This document shows positions 6,532 to 25,914 of a stretch of DNA of 44,658 nt, piece after piece; position 1 is the stretch's first letter; every line of letters starts with the position of its first letter. The translations under genes and the position numbers were made by a program. Location of the stretch: NCBI GenBank assembly GCA_030066135.1, contig JASJCD010000001.1, positions 1 to 44,658 of the forward strand. The letters run 5' to 3'. This DNA is from Desulfobacterales bacterium. Lineage in GTDB: Bacteria > Desulfobacterota > Desulfobacteria > Desulfobacterales > UBA5852. The notes beneath the pieces are model-generated. The model was not told where the DNA came from. It saw nothing but the letters and a program-made list of their open reading frames with translations, and did not search any database.

Positions 6532-6724
6532 CCTCGTTTGCCCTTTGCGTCCCCTTGCTACCCTGAAATATCGAATACGGATTGCCGCGCTTGTCGGGAT
6601 GACCCCTTAACAGGGTCGCCCGGAAAGGACAACCGTTTTCGCAATCAGGTCCGAGCCGTCTGGGTACGGTTGGATTCCCGGTTGCTTGTGGGCGTCGTGC
6701 GTCGCGTGGGATACCAATTCACGG

Positions 6725-8410: not shown

Positions 8411-8729
8411 CGTCTAACCTCGCTCGTGGGGGGCGTCGACAAAGGTGAACACCCTGAGATTAGATTGAATTAGAGGTGCGGTCAAGTCCGTAACACTCAG
8501 GGACCGGCGAGGGAATCCCTACAAATGGTGGGCAGTTCTTGGATGGAAGACCGGAGGCGCATCGCCACGATGGGAATCCGACCTGGGACCAAGGCGGTCG
8601 CAAACCCTGGTCCGCCTGCTTACTTCTGTATGGCCATAGCTTGAAATAATCACCCCTCGGGGAACAGACCCTCACGAAAATCTGTTGGATACGTTTTCTC
8701 CGGCAGGTGCGCATGCGACCGACGGCCGG

Positions 8730-9254
8730 TTAGACCCCCTTTTTCTCAAACAGCCGGAACATCGCCAGACACAAAGATGCCAAGACGACGATCACGATCC
8801 AAGGCGACAGGCCCGTCGCCTGGGGCAGGGTGATCTTGCCCCATTGCCCCCAGGAAATGACAGTGGCTTTGGCCACCGGATAGAACAGCGCGTACAGCGC
8901 ACCCCCGGCCACCATACCCACCAAACCCCAGGCGGCGTCCAGACGTCCCTCGCCCAGGGCGCCCCCGGCCGTTCCGGGGCAGTAGCCCAGAAGCCCCCAG
9001 CCAATGCCGAAGACGGTGCCCCCCACGACCTGGGCACCAATTGACGTCGATTTGAGACTGAGCGCCACCATTCCCAGATCTTTGAGCACATAGATTCCGA
9101 CGGCCGCCACCAGGATGGCGGACAGCATGAATTTAAATATGGTCATGTCTTTCAGACGCAGGGCACCCACCTGGCGGTCGTAGCGCAATACCTCCGCGCG
9201 CTGCAGCAAGATACCGAATAAAATCCCCGTTAGCAGTCCGTATAGCAAGCTCAT
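8730..9254 (-). CDS. YeeE/YedE family sulfur-compound transporter subunit
   Basis: GGTVFGIGWGLLGYCPGT motif; hydrophobic. Confidence 0.85.
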   Translation of the reverse strand: MSLLYGLLTGILFGILLQRAEVLRYDRQVGALRLKDMTIFKFMLSAILVAAVGIYVLKDLGMVALSLKSTSIGAQVVGGTVFGIGWGLLGYCPGTAGGALGEGRLDAAWGLVGMVAGGALYALFYPVAKATVISWGQWGKITLPQATGLSPWIVIVVLASLCLAMFRLFEKKGV

Positions 9255-9269
9255 TGTATTCTCCTTGGT

Positions 9270-9788
9270 CTAATCGCGGTAGAGCAGTTTGGCGGTGATC
9301 CATCCGCCGACGAAGAAAAAGGTAAGGGCCACAAAACCGCTGACGGCAAGTTGGGCCAATCCGCTGAGACCGTGGCCGCTGGGGCACCCCCCGGCCAGGC
9401 GGGCGCCGAAAATCAGAATGGCACCACCGACAAAGGCGGTCAGGTTGCGCCACAGCGGGCGCTCACCAAAGCGCTCGGCCCACATGGTGGGAACAGGCTG
9501 CAATTTAAAGGTGCCCGAAGCCAGCGAGGCGCCCAGGCCTCCCAGAGCTATGCCCACGACAAACAGCACCTGCCAGTTGGGGATCGAATCCGGGCCGAAC
9601 TTGCCGCCTTTGGTGGTGAAATATTCGATACGGCCGGTATCGATCCCGGCCACCGCTTCAATTTTGGCCGCCGTGCGGGCAAAGGTGGTGGACGCTCCGA
9701 AATACTTGCCAGCCACCAGCACCGACAGGGTCAGCAAGACACCAGTCAATGCGCCGGCGATGTACGGGTTCCAGGTATTCGATTGCAT
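9270..9788 (-). CDS. YeeE/YedE family sulfur-compound transporter subunit
   Basis: WNPYIAG and FGARLAGGCPSGHGLSG motifs. Start at ATG 9788 with GGAG RBS. Confidence 0.87.
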   Translation of the reverse strand: MQSNTWNPYIAGALTGVLLTLSVLVAGKYFGASTTFARTAAKIEAVAGIDTGRIEYFTTKGGKFGPDSIPNWQVLFVVGIALGGLGASLASGTFKLQPVPTMWAERFGERPLWRNLTAFVGGAILIFGARLAGGCPSGHGLSGLAQLAVSGFVALTFFFVGGWITAKLLYRD

Positions 9789-9971
9789 AGGGTCTCCTTG
9801 TCTCAATTCGGGTCGGGCAGCGATCCGACCGTTCATGCGATGGGGAAAAGGCCTTTTTTTCAAACGCCAGGCCCATTGTCGCTGCTGGTATCTACTGATC
9901 ACCAGACCGCCAGAAGGTTACAAAAAAAGGAATCCTGGCCTTCCCGCCGGGATAGTGGCGGCACTTCAGGT

Positions 9972-10165: not shown

Positions 10166-12901
<2,736 letters not shown>

Positions 12902-13142
12902 GCCTCAAAACCGGGTGTCAGGTTTGTAAGGATGCCGCCTAAACCGCGAAATCAGCGGCTATCAAAAGAGGGGCATGCATGCCGGCGAAGGGCTGAACGC
13001 CCGCGCCGGTAGCTGCGCGCCGTTGCCTGCTGTCGGCCGGTCGCATCATCCCGGGCCCCAGGCCCGGGAATCCCCCCGAGGGTGGGGAATAAGACGATGC
13101 CTGGGAATCCACCCGGAAATGGGGGCCTTGGATTGAAGCCCT

Positions 13143-13195
13143 TTGCGAAAGGCCGGCCGTTCGTGTATACTTTCAGTCAACATATCAGCTGATAT
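13143..13195 (+). promoter_or_regulatory. Putative sigma70 promoter plus palindromic operator for the envelope locus
   Basis: TTGCGA-N17-TATACT (13143-13171), followed by the perfect 14-bp palindrome ATATCAGCTGATAT (13182-13195). Confidence 0.5.
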
Positions 13196-13340
13196 TTCAT
13201 AATGTTAACTTTCAGGCCCCCCGCCGGAACATACCCACTGACAGCCTTGGCCGGCAACTTGACACATGGGGGCCCGATTCTTATTTCCGGATGTGAGCTT
13301 TGCATGCTCCCGTCCAAGGTTAATACATCCCAGGTTTGAA

Positions 13341-14288
13341 ATGATGAAAACATTGTTCCGATCAGCTGCGTACAGACAAATCGCTGTGACGATCCTGGGC
13401 GTATTCGGCATTGGCCTTCTGATCGGTGCGAACGCCGAGGCCCTCAGTCGAGACGAACGCATCGCTCAGGCCCGCCGGGACTGGCTGGTCGGCCTGGCCA
13501 CCGAAAGGCGGATTGCCGAGGATCTGGCCCGCTATAAATCATCGGACCAGGCCTCGCCGGAAGTCGTCCAGCTTTACGAAACCTATCTGGATCGCGTGCG
13601 GCGCCTTACCGCCGAAAAACGCAAGCTTCTGGATGCCCTCCAGGGCGACCGCAGCAAAGGATCGGCGTCGGCCCATTCGGGCGGTGCTAAAACGAAGTCA
13701 CCTTCTCAGCCCGTATACGATCCCCAGATTCCTGAAGATCAGGAACTTGACGAGATCCGGGCCCTGAATGCGGAACTCGACCGCTCGCTGGCGGCCTTCG
13801 ACGACATGCTCCTGCGAGAAATCGAACAGTCCCGCGTCGAATCCGAGCTCAAAATGCAGAAGTTGGCCCGTGAGGCCGCCCGGGCCGCCAGGTCACTGCG
13901 CGACCAAGGCCAGATGGAGGGCAGCGAAGACACCGAGCAGGGACTGAAAGAAGGCCAGAGCTCCACTGGCAGCGGGAATGAAACCGGAAAAATGGAAGGC
14001 GACCGGCAAGGAGAACAACAGCCGGCCGGGGGGGCCGCGGGCGAGCGTGACGCCGAGGCCAGCCAGAAAGAAAGTGGCCAGGGAACCGATCTGGCCCGCT
14101 CAGAGAACAGGCAAACCAAGGGCACCGCCTCCGGGGAAGCGGGGTCACCGGGCGAAGACGATAACATCAACACCCAGGATGACGATATTGTCGCCCGCCA
14201 GTTGCGGGAAGCTGCCGAAAAGGAAACCGATCCCGAGTTGAAAGAAAAGCTGTGGAAAGAGTACCGCGACTACAAAAAGAGTATTTAG
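13341..14288 (+). CDS. Secreted coiled-coil protein with low-complexity G/E/Q linker and compact C-terminal helical domain
   Basis: Signal peptide ending ANA-EA, helical segments, acidic disordered linker, C-terminus DDDIVARQLREAAEKETDPELKEKLWKEY. Start at ATG 13341. Confidence 0.7.
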   Translation: MMKTLFRSAAYRQIAVTILGVFGIGLLIGANAEALSRDERIAQARRDWLVGLATERRIAEDLARYKSSDQASPEVVQLYETYLDRVRRLTAEKRKLLDALQGDRSKGSASAHSGGAKTKSPSQPVYDPQIPEDQELDEIRALNAELDRSLAAFDDMLLREIEQSRVESELKMQKLAREAARAARSLRDQGQMEGSEDTEQGLKEGQSSTGSGNETGKMEGDRQGEQQPAGGAAGERDAEASQKESGQGTDLARSENRQTKGTASGEAGSPGEDDNINTQDDDIVARQLREAAEKETDPELKEKLWKEYRDYKKSI

Positions 14289-15562
14289 GGTTTCCCGACG
14301 CCAGTCTTACAGCGAGGACCGGTAAGCGCCAAAATCGACGGCGGCGTCCTGTGTTGGTTTCCCTGCTGGGATGTATATTGGTCACGGCTTTAAGCGGCTG
14401 CGCCAGCCACAGTTACAATGCCCGCAATGTGGAGGCCACCCCGATCCAGATCGCCCAGCAGGAGATTCCCGAAGCGGATCTGCTCGACGTGGGGATCGTC
14501 GTTTTTGAAAGCGCCGAGCTTACCGAGGAAGACATCGAGGACAAGGGCACCAACAACGAAATTCGGCAATCCGAGACCCATTTCATTCCCTGCCACCTGC
14601 GCAATACTCTGCAGCGCAGCGCTCAGTGGGGAGCGGTACGCGTCATACCGGAAGAAAGCAGCACCCATGATGTTCTGCTCACCGGCACCATATTGGAATC
14701 CAACGGCCAGGAACTCGTCATTAAAATCAAGGCCACCGATGCCCGCGGCCGCCTCTGGTACGAGGAGACCTATCGTCAGGAAGCCACCGGGGTCTCCTAT
14801 AAAGACAATATCCCGTGGGAGCAGGATGCCTATCAAAACCTTTATAATACGATTGCCAACGATCTGGCCGACCATCGCAAGAAACTCCCGGCCGGTTCAG
14901 TCGACCGGATCCGTTCGATCGCCAAACTGCAATTTGCCCGGGACTTCGCCCCCGATGCCTACGAAGACTACCTCGTCGAAAATGACGATCAGGAAGTGAC
15001 TTTAAACCGCCTGCCGGCGGACGACGATCCCCAGATGGCCCGCCTGATGACCATCCGCGAGCGTGACCACATGTATATCGACACGCTAAATCAATACTAC
15101 GACGGCTTTTATGCCGGAATGTGGCCGGCCTACGAGAATTGGCGCAAGCTGGATCTGACCGAACGGCTGGCCCGGGAGGAAATCGAAAAATCCGCCATGC
15201 TGCGCAAAGCCGGCGGCGCCATGTTGGTGGCCCTGGCCATTTTGCTGGAAGTGACCCAGTCGGGGGCCGGGAATATGCTTCAGGGCGTGATGGCGGTTTC
15301 CGGCGGGCAGGTGTTCATGAGCGGTATCAACCTCTCCAAGCAAGCGGAAATGCACTCGGCGGCCATCGCGGAGCTGAGCGAATCGTTCGGGGCGGATATG
15401 GAACCGGTCAATCTGGAGCTCAAGGGCCAAACCTATGAACTGACCGGTTCAGCCCAAGAGCAATATCGGCAATGGCGGGCGCTCTTGCGTCAGATCTACC
15501 TGCGGGAAACCGGTTTCGAACCTGTCGCGGACGACGGCCCTGACGTGAGCGTGGCCGATTAA
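14252..15562 (+). CDS. Lipoprotein of unknown function
   Basis: Arg-rich n-region, hydrophobic h-region and lipobox LSG-C; second hydrophobic segment near residue 330. Start is uncertain. Confidence 0.7.
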   Translation: MERVPRLQKEYLGFPDASLTARTGKRQNRRRRPVLVSLLGCILVTALSGCASHSYNARNVEATPIQIAQQEIPEADLLDVGIVVFESAELTEEDIEDKGTNNEIRQSETHFIPCHLRNTLQRSAQWGAVRVIPEESSTHDVLLTGTILESNGQELVIKIKATDARGRLWYEETYRQEATGVSYKDNIPWEQDAYQNLYNTIANDLADHRKKLPAGSVDRIRSIAKLQFARDFAPDAYEDYLVENDDQEVTLNRLPADDDPQMARLMTIRERDHMYIDTLNQYYDGFYAGMWPAYENWRKLDLTERLAREEIEKSAMLRKAGGAMLVALAILLEVTQSGAGNMLQGVMAVSGGQVFMSGINLSKQAEMHSAAIAELSESFGADMEPVNLELKGQTYELTGSAQEQYRQWRALLRQIYLRETGFEPVADDGPDVSVAD

Positions 15563-15634
15563 AACCGTGGACGCCATCACTGTTTCAGGCCGCCTTTCGG
15601 CCGCTGCCCGCTGCTGAGTGCCCAGGTCGGACCT

Positions 15635-18046
15635 ATGCCGCCTCCAATCCCTTCATCCATTCGTCCACAACAGATTCTCGGCGATCGTTTCGAGCTGCTC
15701 GCGCTTCTGGGCCGGGGGGGCATGGGGGAGGTCTGGCTCACACGGGATCTCGAATTGGAGGTCCGCATTGCGCTGAAACTTTTGCATCCGCGTCTGGCCG
15801 CCGCCGAGGGCGCAGTTGCGTTCATGAAAAACGAATGCCGGGCCGCCCGCCGTCTGACCCACCCCAATATCGTACGTGTCTACGATTTCCACCAGCAGGA
15901 CGATCTGGCGTTCATTTCCATGGAGTGGATCGAGGGTCCCACCTTTGATCGCTGGATGCTTTCTGACGGAACCGATCAGTTGCAACCGGTCCGCGTGCTG
16001 GGCACGGTGGCCGATGCCCTGGACCATATCCATGGGCAGGGGCTGGTGCATCGCGATGTCAAGGCCCGCAACATCCTGATGACCCCGCACGGGCAGCCGA
16101 AATTGACCGATTTTGGCATTGTCGGTCTATGGCGTTTCCAGGAGGACATGCTGAACATCCAGACCGGAGGATCCGCCGCGGGCATGAGCCCCCAGCAGCG
16201 CGAAGGCCACCCTCCGGATCCGGCCGACGATATCTATGCTCTGGGGGTACTGCTGCAGGTGACGCTGGCCGGTGGCCCCAACCCGGCTGTCACCCTGGAC
16301 CTCCCCGGGTCTGACGAAACCGTGGTTCCCGAGATAGAGACGCCCGCGCCTTCAGCCGCCTGGAACACTGGCGCACTGCTGCAGTTGGCCGCCCAGATGC
16401 AGGCGTCTTCCCGCCGCGCGCGCCCCGCCAGCATGACCGTTGTCCGGGATACCATCGATACCGCTCTTGCCGCTGCGGCTGAGAGCACCATGCCGCCGAA
16501 TGCCGACGTCCACCCGCTGGTTGACGACCGGACGTCAAGGACTGCCGACCATGTCGCGCCGCAATCGTACACGCCCGGTAAAGACATCTCAGCCCCGCCC
16601 TCACGGCGGCCGCCCCCATACTGGGGACTGGGCCTGGTCATGGCGGCCGTGGGGTTGATGGCCGCCGGTATCTGGCTCATCACCGTACTGGCCCCCAAGC
16701 CGCCGGTCGCCACGACGCCGGCGGCGTCCCCCGGGCCGGCAGCGGTTGCACCGCCGGCACCATCCGCAGGCCCCGACGGCGGAACCCGTCTGACACGCGC
16801 CCCCCAGGAAACGGCGCCGGGACCGGATCTCATTACGGCCGAAAAGAGCATGGCCCTCTGGCTGCGCCTCAACGAACAGCTCAAAGAGGCACATGCGGCA
16901 GACTGGGCGGCGGAACGGCTCGAACAAATTGAAACGCGCGCGCAAGCCGCCGATGCCGCCATGATGGCCCGCGACTATACCGGGGCCGCGGAAACCTATG
17001 GCGCCGCCGTCGCGGAAGGCGAAGCCCTGCTGGCCGAACGCGAGACCCGGTATGCGGCCGCAATGCAGGCCGGCGCGGAGGCCCTGCAGGCGGAGCGGCC
17101 TGCCAAGGCCCGCGATCATTTTTCATGGGCCCTCAGGATAAAGCCGGGCGATGCCGCTGCCAGCCAGGGTCTAGCGGCCGCCGATATACTTACAAAGGTC
17201 ATGGTGCAGATGGACGCCGGGCGCTCCCATGAAAGGGAGGGGCGCTACGAGCTGGCGCTGGCGGACTATGAGGCCGTGCTCGCGATCGACGGCGATTTTA
17301 TCCCGGCCCGGGAAGCCGTGGACCGCCTGCGGGAACAGATCGCCGCAACCCAGTATAATCGTCTGGTGGCCGATGGCCTGAGTGCCTATCACCAGAACCG
17401 GCTGAATGAGGCCCGCGGCCACATCAAGGAGGCCTTGCTCTATCGGCCAGGCGGCCATGAAGCCCGTGAAGCGTTGCGGCAAATCGACACGGCGGCGCGC
17501 AATCAGCGCATTGCACGCCTGCGGCAGAGAGGAAACAACGCCGAAAACAGGGAACAGTGGGATCAGGCCCTGAAAGCCTATGAAAATGCACTCGCCATCG
17601 ATCCGGCCCTCCAATTCGCCCGCGATGGTGCCGTGCGCAGTCGCGAGCGCATCCGCCTCGACAAGCGCCTGCGCTATTATCTCGACAATCCGGAGGTTCT
17701 GGCATCCGATCGTTATCTGCAGGAAGCGCGTCAGCTGCTGACGGCGATCGCGGCGCTGGAACCGCGCGGTCCCCGTCTGTCCGGGGAGATCCAAACCCTG
17801 GAAGCCCGAATCAAGGCCGCCCAGACCATCGTCCCCGTAACGCTGCTTTCGGACGGTCTGACAGAAGTGGCTGTGCTGCGTGTGGCCCGTCTGGGTCGCA
17901 TCACCCGCCGGACCCTTGATCTGCGCCCGGGCATCTATACCGTCGTCGGGGCGCGCAACGGTTACAAAGATGTCCGCCAAACCATCCGTGTTGAAGCGGA
18001 TCAGCAGGCCTTGCAGGTGTCGATCGCATGCAAAGAAAAGATCTGA
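15635..18046 (+). CDS. Membrane-anchored Hanks-type Ser/Thr protein kinase with extracytoplasmic TPR-like repeats
   Basis: GRGGMGEV, IALK, HPNIV, HRDVKARN and DFG motifs; TM segment WGLGLVMAAVGLMAAGIWLITV; repeats such as ALADYEAVLAID and ALKAYENALAIDP; short beta-rich C-terminus. Confidence 0.9.
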   Translation: MPPPIPSSIRPQQILGDRFELLALLGRGGMGEVWLTRDLELEVRIALKLLHPRLAAAEGAVAFMKNECRAARRLTHPNIVRVYDFHQQDDLAFISMEWIEGPTFDRWMLSDGTDQLQPVRVLGTVADALDHIHGQGLVHRDVKARNILMTPHGQPKLTDFGIVGLWRFQEDMLNIQTGGSAAGMSPQQREGHPPDPADDIYALGVLLQVTLAGGPNPAVTLDLPGSDETVVPEIETPAPSAAWNTGALLQLAAQMQASSRRARPASMTVVRDTIDTALAAAAESTMPPNADVHPLVDDRTSRTADHVAPQSYTPGKDISAPPSRRPPPYWGLGLVMAAVGLMAAGIWLITVLAPKPPVATTPAASPGPAAVAPPAPSAGPDGGTRLTRAPQETAPGPDLITAEKSMALWLRLNEQLKEAHAADWAAERLEQIETRAQAADAAMMARDYTGAAETYGAAVAEGEALLAERETRYAAAMQAGAEALQAERPAKARDHFSWALRIKPGDAAASQGLAAADILTKVMVQMDAGRSHEREGRYELALADYEAVLAIDGDFIPAREAVDRLREQIAATQYNRLVADGLSAYHQNRLNEARGHIKEALLYRPGGHEAREALRQIDTAARNQRIARLRQRGNNAENREQWDQALKAYENALAIDPALQFARDGAVRSRERIRLDKRLRYYLDNPEVLASDRYLQEARQLLTAIAALEPRGPRLSGEIQTLEARIKAAQTIVPVTLLSDGLTEVAVLRVARLGRITRRTLDLRPGIYTVVGARNGYKDVRQTIRVEADQQALQVSIACKEKI

Positions 18047-20178
18047 ATAATACCACCCGCCCCGATGAAACCACGCCGCCGGATGTCGTCGGCGCGACGA
18101 CTGTCAAACCGGTCGCTTTCGAACCCCGCGGCGCAAAATCCTCTTCCGGTCAGGATCGACGCGGCCGGCTTTGGCTGGCTGCCCTGGGCCTGCCGGCCGT
18201 TGTATTGGCCGTCCTGGCCTGGTTTGTCTTTACCGCCCGCCAACTCGAGCTCGACATTGTGCCAGCGCCTGAAAAACTAACGATCCAGGGCGGTCTCCTG
18301 ACACCCCGCGTGGGCAAAGCCTACCTGCTGCGACCCGGAAACTATCGCCTGCATGCTGTTCGCGCCGGCTACCACGACCTTGAAACCGACTTCCAGATCG
18401 GTGCGGACAAGCATCAGACCCTCAAGTTCACCATGGAAAAGCTGCCGGGCGTGATTCACCTGACCACGCACCGGGAAGGCCAGCCAGCCGAAGCCGTGAA
18501 CGGCGCCGCTGTCGAAGTCGACGGCGATATTCTCGGCCAGAGCCCGCTGGTGGCGGTCGAGGTGCCCGCGGGCCGCCATACGCTCCGCCTGCAGGCGCCG
18601 CTCTACAAACCGCGGCAGGCGCATATCGATGTGGCGGGAGAGGGCCAGAAGCAGACGTTCGCCTTCGGGCTGGAGCCCAACTGGGCTGATGTCAGTTTCG
18701 AGACCAACCCGCCCGGCGCCTGGATTCAATTGGCTGGCCGCCGTCTGGGTCAGACCCCTCTGACGGCACCCCTGGAAGCCGGCCACCATCAGGTGCAAAT
18801 CCGCCGGGAAGGCTACAAACCGGCCTCCACGCGCATTCATGTGATCGCCGGCCAGGCCCTGGCGGTTCCGCCCCTAGCGCTTGAAAAGGTCGCAGGACGC
18901 CTGTTCGTCACCTCCCGCCCCACGGGGGCCAACGTCACGGTTGGCGACCGTTTCTATGGGCAGACTCCCATCGACCTCGCCCTGCCGGCGGATCAGGAAT
19001 ACGTGGTGCGCATTTCCGAACCAGGCTACAAAACGGCCGCGCACCGCGTGCGGGTGGCCAGCGGTGGCAAAGCCTCTGTGGCGGCCGATCTGGTGCCGCG
19101 CCGCGGGAGGATTCGCTTCAAGGTGTCCCCACCGGAAGCCCGATTGCTGGTAAATGGCCAGCCATACGGCCGGGTGCCGGCGTCGCTGGATCTCCTGGCC
19201 GTCCGCCATCAGATCCAGATCGTCAGGGAAGGCTACCGCGACTACCGCACCCAGATTACCCCCCGCCCAGGTTACACTCTGGAGCTCAATGTCAAACTCA
19301 AGCGCCCCTATGAAACCGACGTCCCCGGCATCATCCAGGCCCCCAACGGCTACCGTCTTAAGCTGATCCAACCGGCGGCGGCAACTTTCCGCATGGGGTC
19401 ATCGCGCCGCGAGCAGGGCCGCCGGGCCAATGAAACCCTGCGTGATGTCAGCCTGCGCCACCCGTTTTACATGGGCCTGAAAGAGGTCACCAACGGCCAG
19501 TTTCGAGAATTTCAGGCGGCCCACGACGCCGGCATCTTCAAAAACTATAGTTTGAACCGCAACGAACAGCCCGCGACCCGGATCACATGGCAGCAGGCCG
19601 CCGCCTTCTGCAACTGGTTAAGCCAGCGGGAGGGGCTGCCCCCGGCCTATGTTTCCCAAAGAGGAGGCGGGTTGAAACCGGCGATCCCCCTGAACCATGG
19701 CTACCGCCTGCCGACCGAGGCCGAATGGGCTTTCTGTGCCCGTGTGGATGCATCCGGAAGTGTGGTCAAATACCCCTGGGGGAACAAATTCCCGCCGAAG
19801 GACCGAACCGCGAACCTGGCCGATCAGTCCGCCCAGACGATCCTGCAGCTGTTTCTGCAAAACTACAAAGACGGGCATCCGGTGGCCGCCCCGCCGGGCA
19901 GTCTGAAGCCTAATCACCTGGGTCTGTTCGATATGGGGGGCAACGTCTCGGAATGGTGCCACGACTATTACATGATCTATCCCTATACCCAAGGCCGGGT
20001 GGTCACCGATCCGACCGGTCCGGCAACCGGACGCCACCACGTCATCCGGGGGGGAAGCTGGAAGCAGGCCTCAATCCAGACCCTGCGCGCCGCCCACCGC
20101 GATTATCAGGAGAAGAAGCGCCTGGATCTGGGATTCCGTATCGGCCGCTATGTCGCGCCAAACAAGGAGACAGACTGA
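18028..20178 (+). CDS. TM-anchored PEGA-repeat and SUMF1/FGE-sulfatase-like domain protein
   Basis: N-terminal TM; repeated PEGA-like units (TNPPGA..GQTPL, SRPTGA..GQTPI); C-terminal FRMGS, EVTNGQF, YRLPTEAEW, GLFDMGGNVSEWC, VIRGGSW and GFR. Lacks the FGE catalytic Cys pair after RGGSW. Confidence 0.9.
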   Translation: MQRKDLNNTTRPDETTPPDVVGATTVKPVAFEPRGAKSSSGQDRRGRLWLAALGLPAVVLAVLAWFVFTARQLELDIVPAPEKLTIQGGLLTPRVGKAYLLRPGNYRLHAVRAGYHDLETDFQIGADKHQTLKFTMEKLPGVIHLTTHREGQPAEAVNGAAVEVDGDILGQSPLVAVEVPAGRHTLRLQAPLYKPRQAHIDVAGEGQKQTFAFGLEPNWADVSFETNPPGAWIQLAGRRLGQTPLTAPLEAGHHQVQIRREGYKPASTRIHVIAGQALAVPPLALEKVAGRLFVTSRPTGANVTVGDRFYGQTPIDLALPADQEYVVRISEPGYKTAAHRVRVASGGKASVAADLVPRRGRIRFKVSPPEARLLVNGQPYGRVPASLDLLAVRHQIQIVREGYRDYRTQITPRPGYTLELNVKLKRPYETDVPGIIQAPNGYRLKLIQPAAATFRMGSSRREQGRRANETLRDVSLRHPFYMGLKEVTNGQFREFQAAHDAGIFKNYSLNRNEQPATRITWQQAAAFCNWLSQREGLPPAYVSQRGGGLKPAIPLNHGYRLPTEAEWAFCARVDASGSVVKYPWGNKFPPKDRTANLADQSAQTILQLFLQNYKDGHPVAAPPGSLKPNHLGLFDMGGNVSEWCHDYYMIYPYTQGRVVTDPTGPATGRHHVIRGGSWKQASIQTLRAAHRDYQEKKRLDLGFRIGRYVAPNKETD

Positions 20179-20480
20179 TGCCGGCGGCCGCCAGAGGATG
20201 GGGGGTCGGCCTGTTGCTGGTGGTCTGGCTGCTGGCGGCTCATCCGGCCGGGGCTGAGAACGATGCCGCCGTCTCGCCTTCCCCGCCCCCCCGCCAGTCA
20301 GCGGAAAGTAACGAAGACCGTCCGGAAAACGCCGCGTCCGAATCATCTGCGGAGGCACAAGCCCGGCCGGCCGCCAAAGCGCCGGACCGGTCCCCGGCGA
20401 CGCCGCGCAACCGCAAGCCTTTCCAGCCCTCGGAGGAAATCCACGTGGACAAAGCGGTGGATTTCCCGGCGGACATATGA
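20178..20480 (+). CDS. Small secreted protein with disordered body and ordered C-terminal peptide
   Basis: ATG overlaps the upstream TGA and has a GGAG RBS. Signal peptide ending AGA-E, Pro/Ser/Ala-rich body, terminus FQPSEEIHVDKAVDFPADI. Confidence 0.7.
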   Translation: MPAAARGWGVGLLLVVWLLAAHPAGAENDAAVSPSPPPRQSAESNEDRPENAASESSAEAQARPAAKAPDRSPATPRNRKPFQPSEEIHVDKAVDFPADI

Positions 20481-20486
20481 CACTAG

Positions 20487-20750
20487 AAACTATCTCAAAA
20501 TTAAGATTAGGGTTCCTGGACGGCGTGCGACGGCGATAAAGCGGAGCATACACGCAAGTATGTATGCAGGCTCGTAGGGCAGAGACCCTGCGATTCTGAT
20601 CAAAGCCGGCTCACGATGCACCGTTTTTTTGTAGATCAAGATGCTGAATCCCGCATCGCGGGGACTCACCGCCATGAATAAAAACCAGTGAGGAATCCAG
20701 CAAAGCGGAAAACGCTGCCCGGGGCACTTGGATTATTTTTGAGATAGGTT
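20487..20750. mobile_element. MITE-like non-autonomous element
   Basis: Imperfect terminal inverted repeats with perfect 11-bp core CTATCTCAAAA (20490-20500) / TTTTGAGATAG (20737-20747). Internal palindromes, no transposase. Confidence 0.55.
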
Positions 20751-20809
20751 TTTATCGGGGGCGTATCCGGCCCCCGGCAACCATCATCAACCCCTTTGCG
20801 GATACGCCG

Positions 20810-21613
20810 ATGAAACACAATCTGCCTGTTTCGTTTGAATTTATCTACCAGTTGTTTGCCCTGATCATCATTGTGATCGCGGTGCACGCCGTCTACGTGG
20901 CCGCCATTCGTCCGGCGGCCGATACCTTCCTGCAGCAGCAGGCCGAACGCGTGGCCAGCGGGCAGCCGGCGGAAACGGAGCAATCGATTTTTGTGATGAT
21001 CCGGGATTATGAGCAGGAGGCCTGCTTTATTCTGATGTTCTGGGCCCTGGCCATCATGGCCTATAAAAGCATCACCACCATCCGCCATCGGCGGCTGCTG
21101 AACGAGGATCTGATCCCCCTGGCCGAGGGGGTCCGCGTGCTGCCCGAAGACACCCTGGCCCTGTCCCGCCGTATCCAGGCCCTGCCTGCCGAACAGCGCC
21201 AATCGCTTCTGCCGCGGGCCCTGCTGGCCGCCCTGCAGCGTTTCAGCTCGACGCGCAACATCCAGGATGTGGCCAATGCCATGCATGCTTACTGCTCGAG
21301 CGAAGGCGAACGCCTGGACAGTGAACTGGCCATGATCCGCTATATCGCCTGGGCCATTCCTTCGGTCGGATTTATCGGCACCGTGCGGGGCATTGGTCAA
21401 GCCCTGGGCCACGCCCACAAGGCCCTTGAGGGCGATATCATGGAGGTTACCCGCAGCCTGGGCGTAGCGTTCAACTCCACGCTGATCGCGCTGCTCATCA
21501 GCATCGTGCTCATGTTTCTGCTCCATCAGCTGCAACTGCTGCAGGAACGCTATATTCTGGATTCGGAAGCTTACTGTGAAGACAAACTGACCCGTCGGCT
21601 GCACACCCGTTAG
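20810..21613 (+). CDS. MotA/TolQ/ExbB proton channel family protein
   Basis: Four predicted TMs; IPSVGFIGTVRGI and LGVAFNSTLIAL channel motifs. Confidence 0.9.
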   Translation: MKHNLPVSFEFIYQLFALIIIVIAVHAVYVAAIRPAADTFLQQQAERVASGQPAETEQSIFVMIRDYEQEACFILMFWALAIMAYKSITTIRHRRLLNEDLIPLAEGVRVLPEDTLALSRRIQALPAEQRQSLLPRALLAALQRFSSTRNIQDVANAMHAYCSSEGERLDSELAMIRYIAWAIPSVGFIGTVRGIGQALGHAHKALEGDIMEVTRSLGVAFNSTLIALLISIVLMFLLHQLQLLQERYILDSEAYCEDKLTRRLHTR

Positions 21614-21624
21614 AGGATACGCAG

Positions 21625-23043
21625 GTGAACATCATCGGACTGGAAATACACGACACCGGCATCCTGTGTGCCGGCCCCGAAGGCCGGCTGCACCCCACGG
21701 ACGCGGAGGCCCTGGAGAGTCCGGGATTCGCCCTCGTGCACGGCCAGAATCTACAGCTCGGCATGTCCGCGCTGCACCAGGCCCGGCGGCGTCCCCGGCA
21801 GGTCATTTGCCGTTTCTGGGAAGAGCTCAACACCCAGCCGCTACTGAGCCCGGAGTTCGAGGGCTACAATCATGCCGAGCTGGCATACCGGCACCTGGAA
21901 CAGGTATGGCGCCAGGTTAGCGCCGATGCCGCGGAGGTGGTGCTCACCGTTCCCGACCACTACGAGGACCGTGAACTGGGCCTGCTGCTGGGCATTGCCT
22001 CCGTCCTGGGCCTGCCGATCCGCGGACTGATCTCCCAGGCGCTGGCCTGTACCCCTCCCGAAACCGATCAGGGCACCGACTTCCACGTTGATCTTCATCT
22101 CCACCGTCTGGTGCTTACGGCCGTCGATGGCCGCCCCCGCCCGGAAGTGGTCCGGCATGAAACCATCATCGATCAGGGCCGGGAGGCCGTCCACCGCGAG
22201 TGGGTCAAAATGCTGGCCGATGCCTTCGTGCACCAGACCCGGTTTGATCCGCTCTATGCGGCCGATGCCGAACAGGATCTGCACGACCGCCTGCCGCAAA
22301 TCGCCGATGCGCGGCAGCAGGACCCGATCCATGTCGAAATGCAGGCCGACGGTCGGACCCATCGCATCCAGCTCGATCAGCAGGCCTTTATGGCCCCTTT
22401 GGCCCCCTGGATTGAAAATCTCGGGCACACCATCGGCGACTGGCAGAGAGCGCTTTCCGTGTCGCCGGATGATTCCCGTCTCGTGCTGACCCATCGGGTG
22501 GCCGCGCTGCCGGGGTTCGTGGACACCCTGGAGAATGTTACCGGTTTGAAAGCCCGTCGGCTGTCTGCGGGTGCGGCCGCCGCCAACGCCCTGGCCTACG
22601 CCCAACTATTCTCCAAAGGCAGTACAGCACACGGGGTACCCTACCTGAAGCGCGTTCCCAGGGCGCCGGCGGACACGGCCGCGGTGCGCGCCGCGGCCCC
22701 GGCGGAAGACGAACCTGACCTGCCCACCCACCTGCTCTACCGCGGCCGGGCCTACCCCATCGTGGACGAGCCCCTGGTGGTGGGTCGTGAGCTGCCGGCC
22801 GGTACACGCGGTATTCTTATCCAAGGCCGGCTGGCAGGTGTTTCACGGCATCATTTTTCGGTAATCCGCGAGGATCAGCAGGTCCTGCTGATCGACTCCA
22901 GCAGCTATGGCACCCTCGTGGATGAAGTGCCGGTGATGGACCGCCGCGCCCTGATGGTGGGTCAAATCATACGCATCGGAAAACCGGGGGAAACCCTGCA
23001 GGCCATTGCCTGCCTGTCGCACCATGAAACGACGATCCCTTAA
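21625..23043 (+). CDS. Degenerate Hsp70/actin-fold protein with C-terminal FHA domain
   Basis: IIGLEIHDTG, VVLTVPDHY, GLPIRGLISQALA and HVDLHLH parallel the DnaK motifs. FHA motifs are VVGRE, GVSRHH and SSYGT. Confidence 0.7.
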   Translation: MNIIGLEIHDTGILCAGPEGRLHPTDAEALESPGFALVHGQNLQLGMSALHQARRRPRQVICRFWEELNTQPLLSPEFEGYNHAELAYRHLEQVWRQVSADAAEVVLTVPDHYEDRELGLLLGIASVLGLPIRGLISQALACTPPETDQGTDFHVDLHLHRLVLTAVDGRPRPEVVRHETIIDQGREAVHREWVKMLADAFVHQTRFDPLYAADAEQDLHDRLPQIADARQQDPIHVEMQADGRTHRIQLDQQAFMAPLAPWIENLGHTIGDWQRALSVSPDDSRLVLTHRVAALPGFVDTLENVTGLKARRLSAGAAAANALAYAQLFSKGSTAHGVPYLKRVPRAPADTAAVRAAAPAEDEPDLPTHLLYRGRAYPIVDEPLVVGRELPAGTRGILIQGRLAGVSRHHFSVIREDQQVLLIDSSSYGTLVDEVPVMDRRALMVGQIIRIGKPGETLQAIACLSHHETTIP

Positions 23044-24115
23044 TGTATTCAGCCTGTCTTTCATCGACTGCATCTGTTGCGGTCTGGGGGCTGTTATCCT
23101 GCTCTTCGTCATCGTCAATGCCAAAAGCGCCGTACAGCGCGAAAAAGTGACCCGGGATGTCCACAGCGAGGCCACGCGCATTGAACGCGAAGTCCTGGAG
23201 GGCCGCAAGCGGCTGGTGGAGTTGAGGAACGCACTCGAGAAAACCGAGGCGGATATTGCGCGCACGCAAGGGGCCAGCCGCCGTATTCTCAAGCGCCTGG
23301 AAGAACGCCGCACCGAGATCGCGCACTACGACAAGGAGAACCTGGCGGAGAAAGCCCACCTCAACAAACTCAAAGCCGACGTCCGCTCCCTGGAGGAAGA
23401 AGTCAAACGACTCAAGGCCGGCAGTCAGGCCGAAGACGACCGGGGCGACACCATTCGCACTTTTGCCGGCGAGGGCGACCGTCAGTACCTGACCGATCTC
23501 AAGGTGGGCGGCCGCCGTATCTTCATCCTCGTCGACACCTCGGCCAGCATGCTCGACGACACCATCGTCGGCATCATCCGCCGGCGCAACATGCCCGCGG
23601 CGGAAAAAATCAGATCGCCCAAGTGGCGCCAGGCCGCTGCCACAGTAGACTGGATTACGGCCCAGTTGCCGGCCGAGAGCAAGTACCAGATCTACACCTT
23701 CAATGAGAGTGCCCAGCCGCTTGTGCCCGGTACCCGCAACCAGTGGCTGCCGGCCGCCGAGAGCAAGCGCCTGGACGAAGCGGTGAAACGACTCTATGAG
23801 ACCGCCCCGGAGAAGAGCACCAGTCTGGCCAACGCCTTCGACGCCCTCAATCGCCTGACGCCGCCGCCGGACAATATCTTTCTGCTGACCGACGGGCTCC
23901 CCACCATGGGGGCCGGCAAACCCTGGCGCCGCAAGGTCTCCAGCAAAAAGCGCCTGAGCCTGTTCAACGATGCCGTCGAAAAGCTGCCGGCCAAGGTGCC
24001 GGTCAACGTCATCCAGTTCCCCCTGCGGGGGGACCCCATGGCCGCCAGCGCTTTCTGGCGGCTGGCCACCCGCACCCGGGGCAGCTATTTCTGCCCGGCG
24101 GCGGACTGGCCCTGA
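23024..24115 (+). CDS. Single-TM coiled-coil VWA-domain protein (ExbD/MotB-like N-terminus)
   Basis: MKRRSLNVFSLSFIDCICCGLGAVILLFVI, coiled coil, MIDAS DTSAS...LLTDG. Start at ATG 23024. Confidence 0.85.
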   Translation: MKRRSLNVFSLSFIDCICCGLGAVILLFVIVNAKSAVQREKVTRDVHSEATRIEREVLEGRKRLVELRNALEKTEADIARTQGASRRILKRLEERRTEIAHYDKENLAEKAHLNKLKADVRSLEEEVKRLKAGSQAEDDRGDTIRTFAGEGDRQYLTDLKVGGRRIFILVDTSASMLDDTIVGIIRRRNMPAAEKIRSPKWRQAAATVDWITAQLPAESKYQIYTFNESAQPLVPGTRNQWLPAAESKRLDEAVKRLYETAPEKSTSLANAFDALNRLTPPPDNIFLLTDGLPTMGAGKPWRRKVSSKKRLSLFNDAVEKLPAKVPVNVIQFPLRGDPMAASAFWRLATRTRGSYFCPAADWP

Positions 24116-24130
24116 AGGGGGCGAAAGCCC

Positions 24131-25159
24131 ATGGCCCGCGAACGACGCCAAATCGAAATTTTCAGCCTGTCCTTTCTGGACTGCATCTGCTGCGCCTTCG
24201 GGGCTATCATTCTTTTGTTTGTCCTGTCCAAATTTTCCGAACCGACGGTCATCGAAAAGGTGCGCACGGACCTGCGGGCCGACATCATCCGGATGGAAGA
24301 AGAACGCCATGAAATCAGAGGGCAGACCGTGCTCCTCGACCGGGAGCTCACCGCCAAACGTGTGGTGCAGTCCCAATCGCGTCAGAAACTGGCCCGCCTT
24401 CAGGGTGACCTCACCGCCATCGAGGGTGAATTCGCCGCTTCACGTGACGATGCCGAGGTCCAGAACATCATCGAGGGTCGCATGGCCCGCGCCCTGCAGG
24501 AGCTCACGGAAGAAATGAAAAAACTCTCCCTGGCGCCGCGCAAAAGGATCGACCGCCGTGTGGGCGGCATCCCCGTGGACAGCGAATACATCATCTTCAT
24601 CATCGACACCTCGGGCAGCATGCAGCGCGCCGCCTGGGTGACGGTCCAGAACAAAATCCGCGAGACCCTCGACATCTACCCCAAGGTCAAGGGGATTCAG
24701 GTCATGAACGATATGGGCGAATACATGTTTCCCCATTACCGGGGAAGATGGATCCCCGACACGTCGCGGTTCCGCAACCGGATCGTCGATACCCTGCGGA
24801 CCTGGTTTCCCTTCAGCAACAGCAGCCCCGTGGAAGGCATCACCGAAGCCATACGAACCTATTACGATCCCGACCTTCGCATCAGCCTCTATGTTTTCGG
24901 GGATGAGTACAGCGGCAAAAACATGCAGGGGGCCATCGAGGCGGTGGACCGGATCAACCGCGCGGACAAACAAGGCCGTCGTCGGGTGCGTATCCACGCG
25001 GTGGGGTTCCCCACCGTACTGGACGATCCGCGGGGCATCACCGGCGTGCGCTTCGCCACCCTGATGCGCGCCCTGTGCGAACGCAACGGCGGCGCCTACG
25101 TGGGCCTGAATCAATCCCACGGGTTGGGCACCGGGCGCGGCATCCGCATTCGTTTCTGA
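24131..25159 (+). CDS. Single-TM coiled-coil VWA-domain protein (paralog of the previous gene)
   Basis: FSLSFLDCICCAFGAIILLFVL, coiled coil, MIDAS DTSGS...VFGDE. Confidence 0.85.
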   Translation: MARERRQIEIFSLSFLDCICCAFGAIILLFVLSKFSEPTVIEKVRTDLRADIIRMEEERHEIRGQTVLLDRELTAKRVVQSQSRQKLARLQGDLTAIEGEFAASRDDAEVQNIIEGRMARALQELTEEMKKLSLAPRKRIDRRVGGIPVDSEYIIFIIDTSGSMQRAAWVTVQNKIRETLDIYPKVKGIQVMNDMGEYMFPHYRGRWIPDTSRFRNRIVDTLRTWFPFSNSSPVEGITEAIRTYYDPDLRISLYVFGDEYSGKNMQGAIEAVDRINRADKQGRRRVRIHAVGFPTVLDDPRGITGVRFATLMRALCERNGGAYVGLNQSHGLGTGRGIRIRF

Positions 25160-25254
25160 GGTTCGGGGGTTCTGGGTTCTGAGGTTCTAGGTTTTGAGAT
25201 ATCTCGATGCTATCCGGTCAACCCTGAACTGAGAACCCAGAACCCTGAACCCTG
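25160..25254. repeat. Inverted arrays of 7-bp tandem repeats at a convergent junction
   Basis: Left arm has GGGTTCT-like units (25160-25198); right arm has five AACCCTG-like units (25220-25254). Confidence 0.8.
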
Positions 25255-25257
25255 ATT

Positions 25258-25914
25258 TCACCCGATCAGACCGGTGGTATACGCGATCTGAAACTGTCCC
25301 AGGTAGTAGAGCGGCAGCCCGATAAGACGGTTGTAGAAGGTTTGATGCACAAACCGCTGACGGGCCACGAACAGGTCGGAAATGTAAAATGCCAGGGCCC
25401 CGTTGAGCACCAGCAGGCGGCCCGTAAAGGATAAGCCGGATACGCCGAACAGGGCCCCGGCCGCGATCACCATCAGGGTGATGACCACCACATACCCCAT
25501 GACGGCGTGCCGCATGCCGTCCAGAAACGGCAGCAGACGCGCGTAGACAAAGGTACTCGCCGGAATGGTCAGGACGGCCGTGATCCACATGGCCTTTCCG
25601 GGTGGAGCCAGCATCATGAAGGCCGCGATATACCCGACATGCCCCAGGAGAAAAGCGACCAACCCGACACGAAAAGCCACCTGACCCGGGACCGCCAAGC
25701 AGACATCCCCCACCAGGCACAGCGTGAGCCCGATCGTCACAGCGCCCGCATAGGCCGGGTGTTTGGCCGTCTGGATTGCGGCCAGAAGGATAAAAAGGGA
25801 GGAAAGTAGAAACTTGAAGACAATCTTGTACCCCGTCCGGCCGTTTTTTTCGCTTGTGAGCAGCGCGGCCAGAAGCAGGGGGGCCATGAGAAAAATGATG
25901 GTGTTCGGCGTCAT
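25258..25914 (-). CDS. YhhN/lysoplasmalogenase family membrane protein
   Basis: LCLVGDVCL, GLVAFLLGHVGY, GALAFYISD and LYYLGQF motifs. Confidence 0.88.
   Translation of the reverse strand: MTPNTIIFLMAPLLLAALLTSEKNGRTGYKIVFKFLLSSLFILLAAIQTAKHPAYAGAVTIGLTLCLVGDVCLAVPGQVAFRVGLVAFLLGHVGYIAAFMMLAPPGKAMWITAVLTIPASTFVYARLLPFLDGMRHAVMGYVVVITLMVIAAGALFGVSGLSFTGRLLVLNGALAFYISDLFVARQRFVHQTFYNRLIGLPLYYLGQFQIAYTTGLIG

Follow-up and report, generated by a model that had tools for sequence, protein, structure and literature searches.

We analysed a window of 44,658 nt of DNA from a Desulfobacterales bacterium (all coordinates below are positions of this whole stretch, forward strand), and our subject is a locus of nine plus-strand open reading frames (ORFs), labelled g1 to g9, which occupy positions 13341-25159 in the ORF list of the window. 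We found that these nine genes are a real operon and make up one conserved system that is spread across at least four phyla. The reading that we favour, at a probability of roughly 0.55, is that the locus encodes one membrane-spanning, ion-driven motor machine of the 5:2 type, equipped with an envelope scaffold and with optional control layers. This reading builds on the observed gene content, the conservation of the locus and of its key residues, the folds of g7 and g2, the PorK-like domain of g4 and the co-variation of the layers. The features of the locus are as follows, with ORF boundaries taken from the ORF list (TM, transmembrane; vWA, von Willebrand factor A; FGE, formylglycine-generating enzyme; NBD, nucleotide-binding domain; AF2, AlphaFold2).

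13341-14288, plus strand: g1, secreted or anchored coiled-coil protein with a hydrophobic segment at residues 14-32; no Pfam family above cut-off
14252-15562, plus strand: g2, lipoprotein with lipobox LSGC, the Cys of which is residue 50 when the longest ORF is counted; start codon in use uncertain; no Pfam or NCBIfam match
15635-18046, plus strand: g3, bitopic Ser/Thr kinase; Pfam Pkinase (PF00069, 8.7e-29, 101 bits), TPR_1 and TPR_2
18028-20178, plus strand: g4, TM anchor (residues 50-68), PEGA array and C-terminal FGE/SUMF1-like domain (residues 452-705), by Pfam
20178-20480, plus strand: g5, small secreted protein whose N-terminus resembles a signal peptide, followed by a variable linker and, at the C-terminus, a conserved 19-mer, by ORF and motif
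20421-20477, plus strand: C-terminal motif of g5, here FQPSEEIHVDKAVDFPADI, by comparison of ORF ends
20810-21613, plus strand: g6, TolQ-like MotA/ExbB-family channel subunit, by Pfam, hhalign and an invariant Thr pair
21625-23043, plus strand: g7, cytoplasmic protein with an Hsp70-NBD-like part and an FHA domain, by AF2, Foldseek, sequence profile and Pfam FHA
23024-24115, plus strand: g8, N-in TM helix, coiled coil and periplasmic vWA domain, by VWA_2, hydropathy and alignment
24131-25159, plus strand: g9, TM helix with Asp17, coiled coil and putative divergent vWA domain, by paralogy to g8 and an invariant DxSxS

The nine genes form an operon conserved across phyla

A sequence-only reading of this stretch had described nine co-oriented genes, several of them overlapping, and all nine plus-strand ORFs lie at or near the places it gave them. 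Overlaps are found between g3 and g4 and between g7 and g8, and the ATG of g5 overlaps the stop codon of g4 by 1 nt; the proposed overlap of g1 and g2 hinges on the start of g2, which is itself uncertain. The spacing is 11 nt between g6 and g7 and 15 nt between g8 and g9, and the gap of 329 nt between g5 and g6 holds an inserted dispersed repeat. The domains called in the same reading were recovered by Pfam (Pkinase and TPR, PEGA and FGE-sulfatase, MotA_ExbB, FHA, and VWA_2), and g1, g2, g5 and g9 gave no Pfam or NCBIfam family above cut-off. A hydropathy scan found one N-terminal hydrophobic segment each in g1, g2, g4, g5, g8 and g9. Promoter-like and terminator-like sites occurred at the level of shuffled sequence (5 versus 3.0±1.8 and 11 versus 12.0±3.4, respectively).

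To place the locus among other genomes, a g7-relative profile search of a species-genome collection was used, which yielded at least 577 confirmed relatives among at least 599 pattern matches. The best 80 of these at least 577 loci formed the set for synteny, and the nine window proteins were searched by phmmer against all stop-to-stop frames of the 80 loci, with per-gene counts taken only over loci whose contig reaches the gene's place. In the resulting map the order g1-g2-g3-g4-(g5)-g6-g7-g8-g9 is kept on one strand wherever the contig reaches, so that the claim that the genes form one system stood up to the synteny comparison in several phyla. Presence counts were 43/44 for g1, 47/48 for g2, 50/51 for g3, 58/58 for g4, 75/75 for g6, 75/75 for g8 and 64/64 for g9. 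All eight larger genes occur together, in the same order, in 45 related loci, and the adjacency of the genes is therefore far above chance. The sole locus lacking g1-g3 belongs to a Deltaproteobacteria metagenome-assembled genome (MAG; L025), in which g4-g9 and the g5 motif are present and about 6 kb of upstream sequence is available. Carriers comprise Desulfobacterales-type MAGs, Woeseiaceae/Steroidobacteraceae and other Gammaproteobacteria, four Acidobacteriota, one Thermodesulfovibrionia and one Polyangiaceae MAG.

The occurrence of the system was tallied by genome in Woeseiaceae and in the window's own phylum. In Woeseiaceae, a g7 relative (E<=1e-30) was found in 144/151 genomes (143/150 when the unpublished genome G431, which is part of this tally, is left out), nearly always in single copy, and the seven genomes without a match measure 1.1-2.8 Mb; the distribution in this family is thus housekeeping-like and close to universal. 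In the window's own phylum, 2/401 sampled genomes were positive, with the present genome counted. Full-length g7 occurs in one copy in each of five genomes checked. Beyond g1 and g9, the flanks are conserved only inside the Woeseiaceae-type clade, and the PALP and pterin dehydratase genes found in such flanks were not counted as parts of the system.

In a search of 1.84 billion cluster representatives, 154 belonged to the g6 subfamily at E<=1e-30, a number that rose to 1215 at E<=1e-10, and near-identical DNA is present in eight marine-sediment runs from two studies. When 12900-25400 was divided into 30 bins, metatranscriptome contigs with >=95% identity lay on 21 bins for one run and on 17 for another run of the same study; a contig of 558 nt crosses the g1/g2 junction. 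This coverage is a weak hint that the locus is expressed, as RNA libraries can hold DNA, contigs are no proof of a single transcript and uncovered bins are uninformative.

The repeat between g5 and g6 (20481-20750) is about 270 bp long and has 45 matches on many contigs of this genome, on both strands and at 69-89% identity. Its word depth in one marine-sediment DNA run was 232, versus about 12 in most other bins. It looks like an insertion of the miniature inverted-repeat transposable element (MITE) type that would have widened a gap which in related loci measures only tens of nucleotides. An Rfam scan of the repeat, and of the whole window, returned no family match.

A TolQ-like channel and its putative twin vWA partners

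The channel protein g6 matches Pfam MotA_ExbB (PF01618) at 1.5e-14 (54.3 bits versus a cut-off of 22.9) and falls below the TolQ equivalog of NCBIfam (TIGR02796; 28.4 bits, cut-off 221). When aligned by hhalign with E. coli TolQ, g6 gave a probability of 88% and an E value of 2.9e-6 over residues 153-258 only, which is its C-terminal half; the match to ExbB was weaker (29%), and that to E. coli MotA had a probability of 1.5%. By these comparisons, g6 is not a canonical TolQ, ExbB or MotA. Four hydrophobic segments can be read in the protein, three of which are scored by the hydropathy scan. The two putative pore threonines, T191 (21380-21382) and T224 (21479-21481), are invariant in 76/76 sequences and fall on the threonines of 'GTV' and 'ATA' of E. 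coli TolQ in the hhalign alignment.

Both g8 and g9 start with a short basic tail, followed by one TM helix with an aspartate (the helix of g8 spans residues 13-31). Asp15 of g8 (23066-23068) is invariant in 78/78 sequences, and Asp17 of g9 (24179-24181) in 70/70. The layout of these helices, an F/L-I/L-D core and then about 15 hydrophobic residues, matches that of E. coli TolR, of ExbD and of the TolR of this genome, and the likeness is limited to the TM helix, neither protein matching the ExbD/TolR family (PF02472). A Pfam scan of the nine genes found no ExbD, TonB, OmpA or nuclease domain, in line with the sequence-only reading as far as Pfam domains are concerned; what that reading had not taken into account is the ExbD/TolR-type Asp helix that g8 and g9 carry. 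The apparently missing ExbD is, on the evidence of these helices, most probably the pair of twin vWA proteins itself.

The vWA assignment is direct for g8, which matches Pfam VWA_2 (6e-8, 33.7 bits versus a cut-off of 27) and has an invariant metal-ion-dependent adhesion site (MIDAS) motif, D171-x-S173-x-S175, in 78/78 sequences, with T266 and D290 also conserved. The second of the twins, g9, is paralogous to g8 over its full length (26% identity, BLASTP E 2e-19), and its D159-x-S161-x-S163 is invariant in 70/70 sequences. The g9 of the window has no Pfam match of its own, 14/25 of its relatives match VWA_2 weakly (best 1.2e-4), and a search of the g9 profile against the Protein Data Bank (PDB) returned only coiled-coil chains and no vWA chain. 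The idea of twin vWA proteins is thus confirmed by Pfam for g8, and for g9 it leans on paralogy and on the weak matches of its relatives.

That the channel would have local partners of its own agrees with the rest of the genome, where the two other MotA_ExbB genes each adjoin their own partner: TolR and a TolA-like gene on contig C252, and MotB (plug and OmpA domains) on contig C19. The sole ExbD-family match of the genome is that on C252, beside the canonical TolQ, and none lies beside g6.

Candidate scaffold proteins of the envelope

The C-terminal FGE/SUMF1-like domain of g4 is closest in sequence to the PorK/GldK proteins of the type IX secretion system (T9SS). Pfam assigned PEGA (2.3e-57, four stretches) and FGE-sulfatase (2.1e-41) to g4, and its best sequence matches in the PDB were the PorK/GldK lipoproteins 9myj_B and 9mzu_A (1.2-1.8e-18), followed by true FGEs at about 1e-16. 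The match to NCBIfam GldK (TIGR03525) reached 3.7e-33 and 115 bits, below the cut-off of 350. In its C-terminal segment g4 reads RGGSWKQASIQTLRAAHR, which is Cys-free and aligns to the Cys-free 'RGGSW...R' segment of PorK. In FGEs the catalytic cysteine pair would lie in this C-terminal segment, and the FGE-like domain of g4 looks non-catalytic.

The lipoprotein g2 was modelled with AF2 (predicted local distance difference test, pLDDT, 78.5; predicted template-modelling score, pTM, 0.74). In the model, an alpha/beta domain at about residues 58-215 precedes two helices of about 70 residues each, which form a hairpin whose tip is hydrophobic and rich in Gly. In VIA-align, the alpha/beta domain matched FlgT of the flagellar LPHT ring, DUF330/PqiC, PelC, CT253, the TolB N-domain, a CsgG-complex protein, LptE and TraT at Z 6.1-9.9, the top matches (Z 8.2-9.9) being the FlgT ring (8z5n), DUF330 (2iqi), PelC (5t10/5t0z), TolB (7mx5) and PqiC (8q2c). 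The root-mean-square deviation (rmsd) to PelC was 2.6-2.7 Å over 113-116 residues, and the TolB N-domain scored Z 8.9. Foldseek matches were weaker than those of VIA-align, and a search of the ESM Atlas returned only unnamed hypothetical clusters. From its model, g2 looks like an outer-membrane lipoprotein of the PelC/LptE/TolB-N type.

The kinase g3 consists of a kinase domain (about residues 20-290), a TM segment (334-352), a Pro-rich linker and a periplasmic TPR region with a C-terminal PEGA-like domain (398-803). Its K48, H139-R140-D141, K143, N146 and D159-F160-G161 are invariant in 20/20 kinase-bearing rows of the alignment. The last 90 residues, with 'LRPGxYxxxxxRxGY', resemble the PEGA repeats of g4 (BLASTP E 2e-5) and are the best-conserved part of g3, whose periplasmic part is present in 50/51 loci. 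In the coiled-coil protein g1 the middle is acidic and variable, and conservation centres on a helical motif near the C-terminus, DDDIVARQLREAA..DPEL.EKLW.EY..YK; its alignment holds 16 invariant positions, 14 of them within residues 282-311.

g7 and g5 are predicted to lie on opposite sides of the membrane

The AF2 model of g7 (pLDDT 87.1, pTM 0.70) bears out the degenerate Hsp70 fold that had been suspected from the sequence. Residues 1-345 match DnaK/BiP NBDs in Foldseek at E 1e-16 to 2e-19, and superposition on the M. tuberculosis DnaK NBD gave a TMt of 0.79 and an rmsd of 3.6 Å over 349 columns at 14% identity, so this part of the model has the predicted fold of an Hsp70/DnaK nucleotide-binding domain. 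The sequence profile of g7 matched FHA structures and, weakly, the Hsp70 proteins Ssz1 and Ssb. The phosphate-loop stretches of g7 read 'DLHLHR' (D156 and H160 in 20/20) and 'LPG', at positions where the Hsp70 motifs DLGGGT and GGxxRxP would stand. Since the glycine-rich phosphate loops are replaced, ATP handling by g7 appears doubtful. The FHA domain (PF00498; residues 385-452, nt 22777-22980; 6e-8, 33.4 bits versus a cut-off of 20.7) takes the place of the substrate-binding domain of Hsp70.

The small protein g5 ends in a motif of the form F-x-P-[ST]-[EDQ]-x-[IV]-x-x-[DEG]-x-x-[IV]-x-[FY]-P-x-[DN]-[IM]-COOH. An ORF that ends exactly in this motif was found in the g4-g6 interval of 70/70 loci holding both genes (48 by regular expression and 22 P-T-E/D-type variants read by eye), whereas phmmer found g5 in just 30/72 loci, a low recovery due to its low-complexity middle. 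The N-termini of g5 look like signal peptides. Woeseiaceae have an acidic linker, and in the clade of the window it is either basic or rich in Pro. Predicted complexes of the C-terminal region of g5 with the periplasmic part of g3, the PorK-like domain of g4 and the head of g9 gave ipSAE values of 0.01 and 0.01 against a mark of 0.32 and are evidence neither way.

Nested variants separate the core from its control layers

The g9 profile was searched over a 401-genome sample of Pseudomonadota (the phylum of the genome G401). Twenty genomes, G401 included, were positive for g9, and in 19/20 a g8 paralogue lies alongside. Sixteen regions from such genomes were compared. Thirteen of them (L118-L130) carry the shorter operon g1-g2-g3-g4-g6-g8-g9, in which g3 aligns only from about residue 300 on and is hence kinase-less, g7 is absent and the g4-g6 gap holds no ORF with the g5 motif (13/13). 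Two further regions (L132 and L133) have g7 and a kinase-less g3, and these are the sole regions of the set with the g5 motif; the last (L131) is too short to judge its g7 and g5 content. Thus, g5 and g7 are either both present or both absent. Relatives of the minimal-variant g9 occur in Mariprofundus isolates and MAGs (including sp. NF and EBB-1), Candidatus Kentrum, Sneathiella marina and others, and 4027 proteins reached E<=1e-20 among 8000 scored candidates.

Kinase and FHA domain co-vary among the g7-bearing loci, in which 12 complete g3 orthologues lack the kinase domain. The phosphothreonine site of the FHA domain, S407-[RK]408-x-H410, has all its residues in 41/41 kinase-bearing loci, that of the window among them, but in only 5/14 kinase-less loci, one of the 14 (L132) being gapped there. 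This co-variation is what would be expected if the FHA domain of g7 reads a mark written by the g3 kinase. The phospho-switch proposed in the sequence-only reading gains support from this pattern, with the amendment that the switch is an optional layer, because the kinase is missing in 12 g3 orthologues, and kinase, g7 and g5 are all missing in the minimal variant. The arginine of the FHA 'GR' motif is confined to the clade of the window; most kinase-bearing loci have Ser in its place.

Two more genes join the operon in Woeseiaceae-type loci only, both on the same strand: a PP2C gene directly upstream of g1 in 19 loci (for example L040:360-1346), and, in 26 loci, a Gly-zipper/OmpA-domain gene that follows g9 at a distance of about 93 bp (for example L040:13553-14326). 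The locus of the window adjoins neither, and three PP2C_2 matches lie elsewhere in its genome. The variants thus form layers: a seven-gene core, the addition of g5 and g7, the addition of the kinase domain, and the addition of PP2C and OmpA genes.

Comparison of g6 between g7/g5-bearing and minimal loci revealed class-specific sites, namely an invariant L-P-E-D at residues 111-114, length differences of 3 and 5 residues and ten substitutions. Positions that separate the classes lie within residues 103-114 (about 21116-21151) and 46-56 (about 20945-20977), and the first loop is longer. As leads, residues 103-114 on the cytoplasmic side may be a putative dock for g7, and residues 46-56 in the periplasmic loop one for g5. 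T148 of g6 ('RFSSTRNI', with I at pT+3) was considered as an FHA docking site and set aside, being equally conserved in the g7-less variant and having no specific support.

A proposed motor with optional control, weighed against other readings

If the locus encodes an ion-driven motor, a g6 pentamer would enclose the N-terminal helices of a g8/g9 heterodimer, and the flow of protons or other ions through the Asp/Thr site would turn or pull the coiled-coil stalk. In g8 and g9, the stalk and two predicted metal-dependent vWA heads would replace the periplasmic domain of TolR or MotB; the heads might grip, pull or turn a periplasmic or outer-membrane partner by way of a metal site that engages an acidic residue of the partner. 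The inner-membrane anchored g4, together with g3, the outer-membrane lipoprotein g2 and g1, would provide a periplasmic and outer-membrane frame, and g5 from the outside and g7 from the inside would modulate the motor. The g3 kinase could sense through its TPR/PEGA ectodomain and recruit or release g7, whose FHA domain would read the phosphothreonine mark of the kinase on a presumed substrate, and the adjoining PP2C would form a further control layer in Woeseiaceae. Our guess for the output is tethering or remodelling of outer membrane and peptidoglycan of the Tol-Pal kind, gated by the state of the envelope. This is our first choice because of the Tol-Pal-like parts, the OmpA gene in Woeseiaceae, the housekeeping inheritance and a gene set that holds no translocon, cargo or nuclease. 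Secretion, motility and defence as outputs found no specific support; no outer-membrane barrel, adhesin or nuclease was found in the locus or conserved beside it.

An unlikely alternative is that the locus is mainly an envelope-damage sensor like the H1 type VI secretion system (H1-T6SS) pathway of P. aeruginosa, with the TolQ-like channel and the vWA pair as an accessory or as the regulated output. In that pathway, a lipoprotein of the outer membrane and a periplasmic FGE-like protein switch on a membrane Ser/Thr kinase, an FHA protein reads the resulting mark and PP2C removes it; on this reading, transduction of force would be a side issue. The same set of domains is present (lipoprotein g2, FGE-superfamily g4, membrane Ser/Thr kinase g3, vWA proteins g8 and g9, FHA protein g7 and, in Woeseiaceae, PP2C), and PpkA of that pathway has a periplasmic vWA domain. 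However, 12 complete g3 orthologues have no kinase domain, and the 13 minimal loci drop kinase, g7 and g5 yet keep g1-g4, g6, g8 and g9, which suggests that the conserved core is mechanical rather than signalling. The invariant Asp and Thr of the pore likewise argue for a working motor, and a Pfam scan found no T6SS genes in the locus or among its neighbours. Less likely still is a machine for secretion or surface motility akin to the T9SS and gliding core, in which a 5:2 motor of the GldL/GldM type drives a PorK-like ring. The C-terminal domain of g4 is nearest to solved PorK/GldK chains (NCBIfam GldK 3.7e-33), a motor with a long periplasmic dimer resembles GldLM, and the fold class of g2 includes ring-forming outer-membrane lipoproteins. 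Set against this, the nine genes and their conserved flanks hold no translocon, barrel, adhesin, cargo with a sorting domain or GldN/PorN-like gene; g4 is TM-anchored and no lipoprotein, with 115 bits versus the GldK cut-off of 350; and g6 is TolQ-like with four hydrophobic segments, unlike GldL. We regard as very improbable a Zorya-type anti-phage or anti-invader defence in which a MotA-like motor senses perturbation of the envelope: the sparse occurrence in the window's phylum (2/401), a weak ZorA match (E 0.0057) and kinase matches to PD-T4-6 and MADS models would suit it, but the kinase matches in PADLOC span the generic kinase domain only, Pfam and PADLOC scans found no nuclease, helicase or other effector and no ZorB, ZorC or ZorD, the locus is near-universal, single-copy and flanked by conserved genes in Woeseiaceae (144/151), and its neighbours in the window are housekeeping genes.

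Several points weigh against the motor reading itself. The 5:2 stoichiometry of g6 with g8 and g9 would follow from analogy and from a published model class (PMC12204202). None of the references aligns with the N-terminal half of g6, and the whole protein has four readable hydrophobic segments versus three in TolQ; the vWA assignment of g9 is indirect, by way of its paralogy to g8 and of DxSxS; and the Z scores for the predicted fold of g2 (to 9.9) are modest, little above the VIA-align background of 7-8. The kinase-less loci form few clades, so the co-variation with the FHA motif does not amount to many independent events, and an FHA domain without the classical 'GR' arginine in most relatives may bind phosphothreonine atypically. 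The sparse distribution in the window's own phylum (2/401) would also fit an accessory, horizontally moving system.

Beyond the motor reading as such, we tentatively propose a more far-reaching version, which we hold to be possible but somewhat short of probable. In it, the locus would be a third major trans-envelope machine of the TolQ family beside Ton and Tol-Pal, in which a TolQ-like pentamer turns a heterodimeric vWA rotor that engages a lipoprotein ring and a PorK-like/PEGA scaffold. A two-sided gate, with the secreted C-terminal peptide of g5 outside, g7 as an Hsp70-NBD-FHA clamp inside and a fused kinase read-out, would control it; it would serve core envelope maintenance in Woeseiaceae and other abundant sediment bacteria, and it would be the first ion-driven stator under the control of threonine phosphorylation.

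Rotary 5:2 motors power flagella, TonB uptake, Tol-Pal, gliding and the T9SS, and Zorya defence, and each newly understood member has shown a new route for energy across the periplasm. In our locus, the partner that resembles a stator terminates in two vWA heads of the integrin type (putatively so for g9), and a fixed set of scaffold proteins travels along in at least four phyla. The nested variants are natural controls for each layer (core, g5/g7, kinase and PP2C), and the presence of relatives in cultured strains (Mariprofundus sp. NF and EBB-1, Sneathiella marina) makes the system genetically testable. If the link between kinase and FHA domain is true, it would connect Hanks-type signalling to an ion-driven motor.

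Surroundings of the locus

The source assembly measures 3.98 Mb in 344 contigs and is 80% complete. Upstream, the neighbour of the locus encodes a pyruvate phosphate dikinase (PPDK), and downstream, on the other strand, lie genes for YhhN, an acyltransferase and UDP-glucose dehydrogenase; the flanking genes are those of ordinary metabolism and housekeeping.

Further upstream in the window we noted the following:
6686-8473, plus strand: ORF of 595 aa without a Pfam family
5212-6531, minus strand: ORF of 438 aa with a partial ABC_tran match only
8730-9902, minus strand: two adjoining half-size Sulf_transp (YeeE/YedE-like) ORFs

The 595-aa and 438-aa ORFs adjoin an ABC-F type ATPase at 1381-3231, and the Sulf_transp pair may represent one sulfur-transport gene that has been split, or else a form made of two genes.

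Comparison with known systems

Tol-Pal shares with the locus a TolQ-type channel (hhalign 88%), an Asp-bearing partner helix and a long periplasmic force transducer, as well as the likeness of the g2 N-domain to the TolB N-domain (Z 8.9) and, in Woeseiaceae, a downstream OmpA-domain gene; the coiled-coil/TPR components of Tol-Pal CpoB are a further likeness. It differs in that g6 scores 28 bits versus a TolQ cut-off of 221, and in that the window locus has no TolR periplasmic domain, TolA domain III, beta-propeller or Pal; the canonical TolQ-TolR-TolA-like set of this genome lies separately on C252. The T9SS, with its GldL-GldM (PorL-PorM) motor and PorK/GldK-PorN ring, shares the PorK-like FGE-fold domain predicted on g4, and, like the proposed machine, GldLM is a motor of the 5:2 type with a dimeric partner that projects deep into the periplasm. 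Here, however, the PorK-like domain sits on a TM-anchored PEGA protein and not on a lipoprotein, the channel is TolQ-like, the locus has no GldN, SprA, cargo or GldLMN genes, and the hosts are not Bacteroidota. The stators of Zorya (ZorAB) and of flagella (MotAB) likewise combine a channel of the MotA/ExbB family with a partner that bears an Asp. For ZorA, the match is marginal (E 0.0057, spanning only 90 residues) and there is no other Zor match, and the PADLOC scan otherwise returned only generic kinase and coiled-coil matches; with respect to MotAB, the hhalign probability is 1.5%, the partner lacks the peptidoglycan-binding OmpA domain, and there is neither a flagellar context nor an effector.

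For the H1-T6SS of P. aeruginosa, the available text of PMC13713981 describes a TagQ lipoprotein/TagR complex that acts on PpkA, with Fha1 as the only target, and places TagR residues 127-359 in the FGE-sulfatase superfamily. As far as this text goes, the TagQ/TagR/TagST-PpkA-PppA-Fha1 pathway shares with our locus and its relatives a lipoprotein, an FGE-superfamily protein, a membrane kinase, an FHA reader and a PP2C, and the FHA site tracks the kinase here. It differs in that our locus has no T6SS, its FHA domain forms one protein with an Hsp70-like NBD, its kinase can be absent, and its signalling layer is attached to a probable motor. Two further candidates were compared and rejected: the vWA conflict systems of Kaur et al. 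2020 (PMC7159879), whose available text has no MotA/ExbB and describes a different system, and the zetaproteobacterial sfz stalk cluster (PMC8250860), whose available text has no vWA, TolQ, PEGA or sulfatase terms and which is unrelated.

The closest described class is that of the main text of PMC12204202 ('Origin and Evolution of Bacterial Periplasmic Force Transducers', Mol Biol Evol 2025). It reports genes for TM-tethered vWA proteins in heterologous pairs, tightly linked to tolQ-like genes with no tolR/exbD nearby and of unknown function, and a TolR-like transpore helix with a conserved Asp, the pair of which AlphaFold 3 (AF3) models put inside a Thr ring. With this TPH-vWA class, for which the seed proteins of that paper come from Idiomarina, our locus shares a tolQ-like gene followed, after g7, by two TM-vWA genes, with no ExbD/MotB in the locus; the heterologous pair is here g8/g9, 26% identical and both present in every locus long enough, and the Asp helix (78/78 and 70/70) and the channel Thr pair (76/76) are likewise present. 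The g6-g8-g9 core fits every testable feature that the main text gives for the class, so a shared family identity appears probable from these common features. The distinct motor class proposed in the sequence-only reading thus holds insofar as the channel is not a canonical TolQ, ExbB or MotA, and is qualified in that the core class had already been described in silico. The main text of PMC12204202 has none of g1-g5 or g7 and no terms kinase, Hsp70, PEGA, sulfatase or GldK; no paper on the whole locus was found in the open-access library searched, and neither there nor in that main text did we find the accessory set g1-g4, the g5 motif, the coupling of g5 and g7, the minimal variant, the optional kinase with decay of the FHA site or the PP2C/OmpA genes of Woeseiaceae. 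The nested variants, the g5 motif and the co-variation of kinase and FHA domain are thus findings of the present analysis and not of that main text. Together, what was already known is the three-gene motor core, in silico, and what is new comprises the g5 19-mer, the g5/g7 coupling, the minimal variant, the kinase-FHA co-variation and the proposed assignments of g4 and g2.

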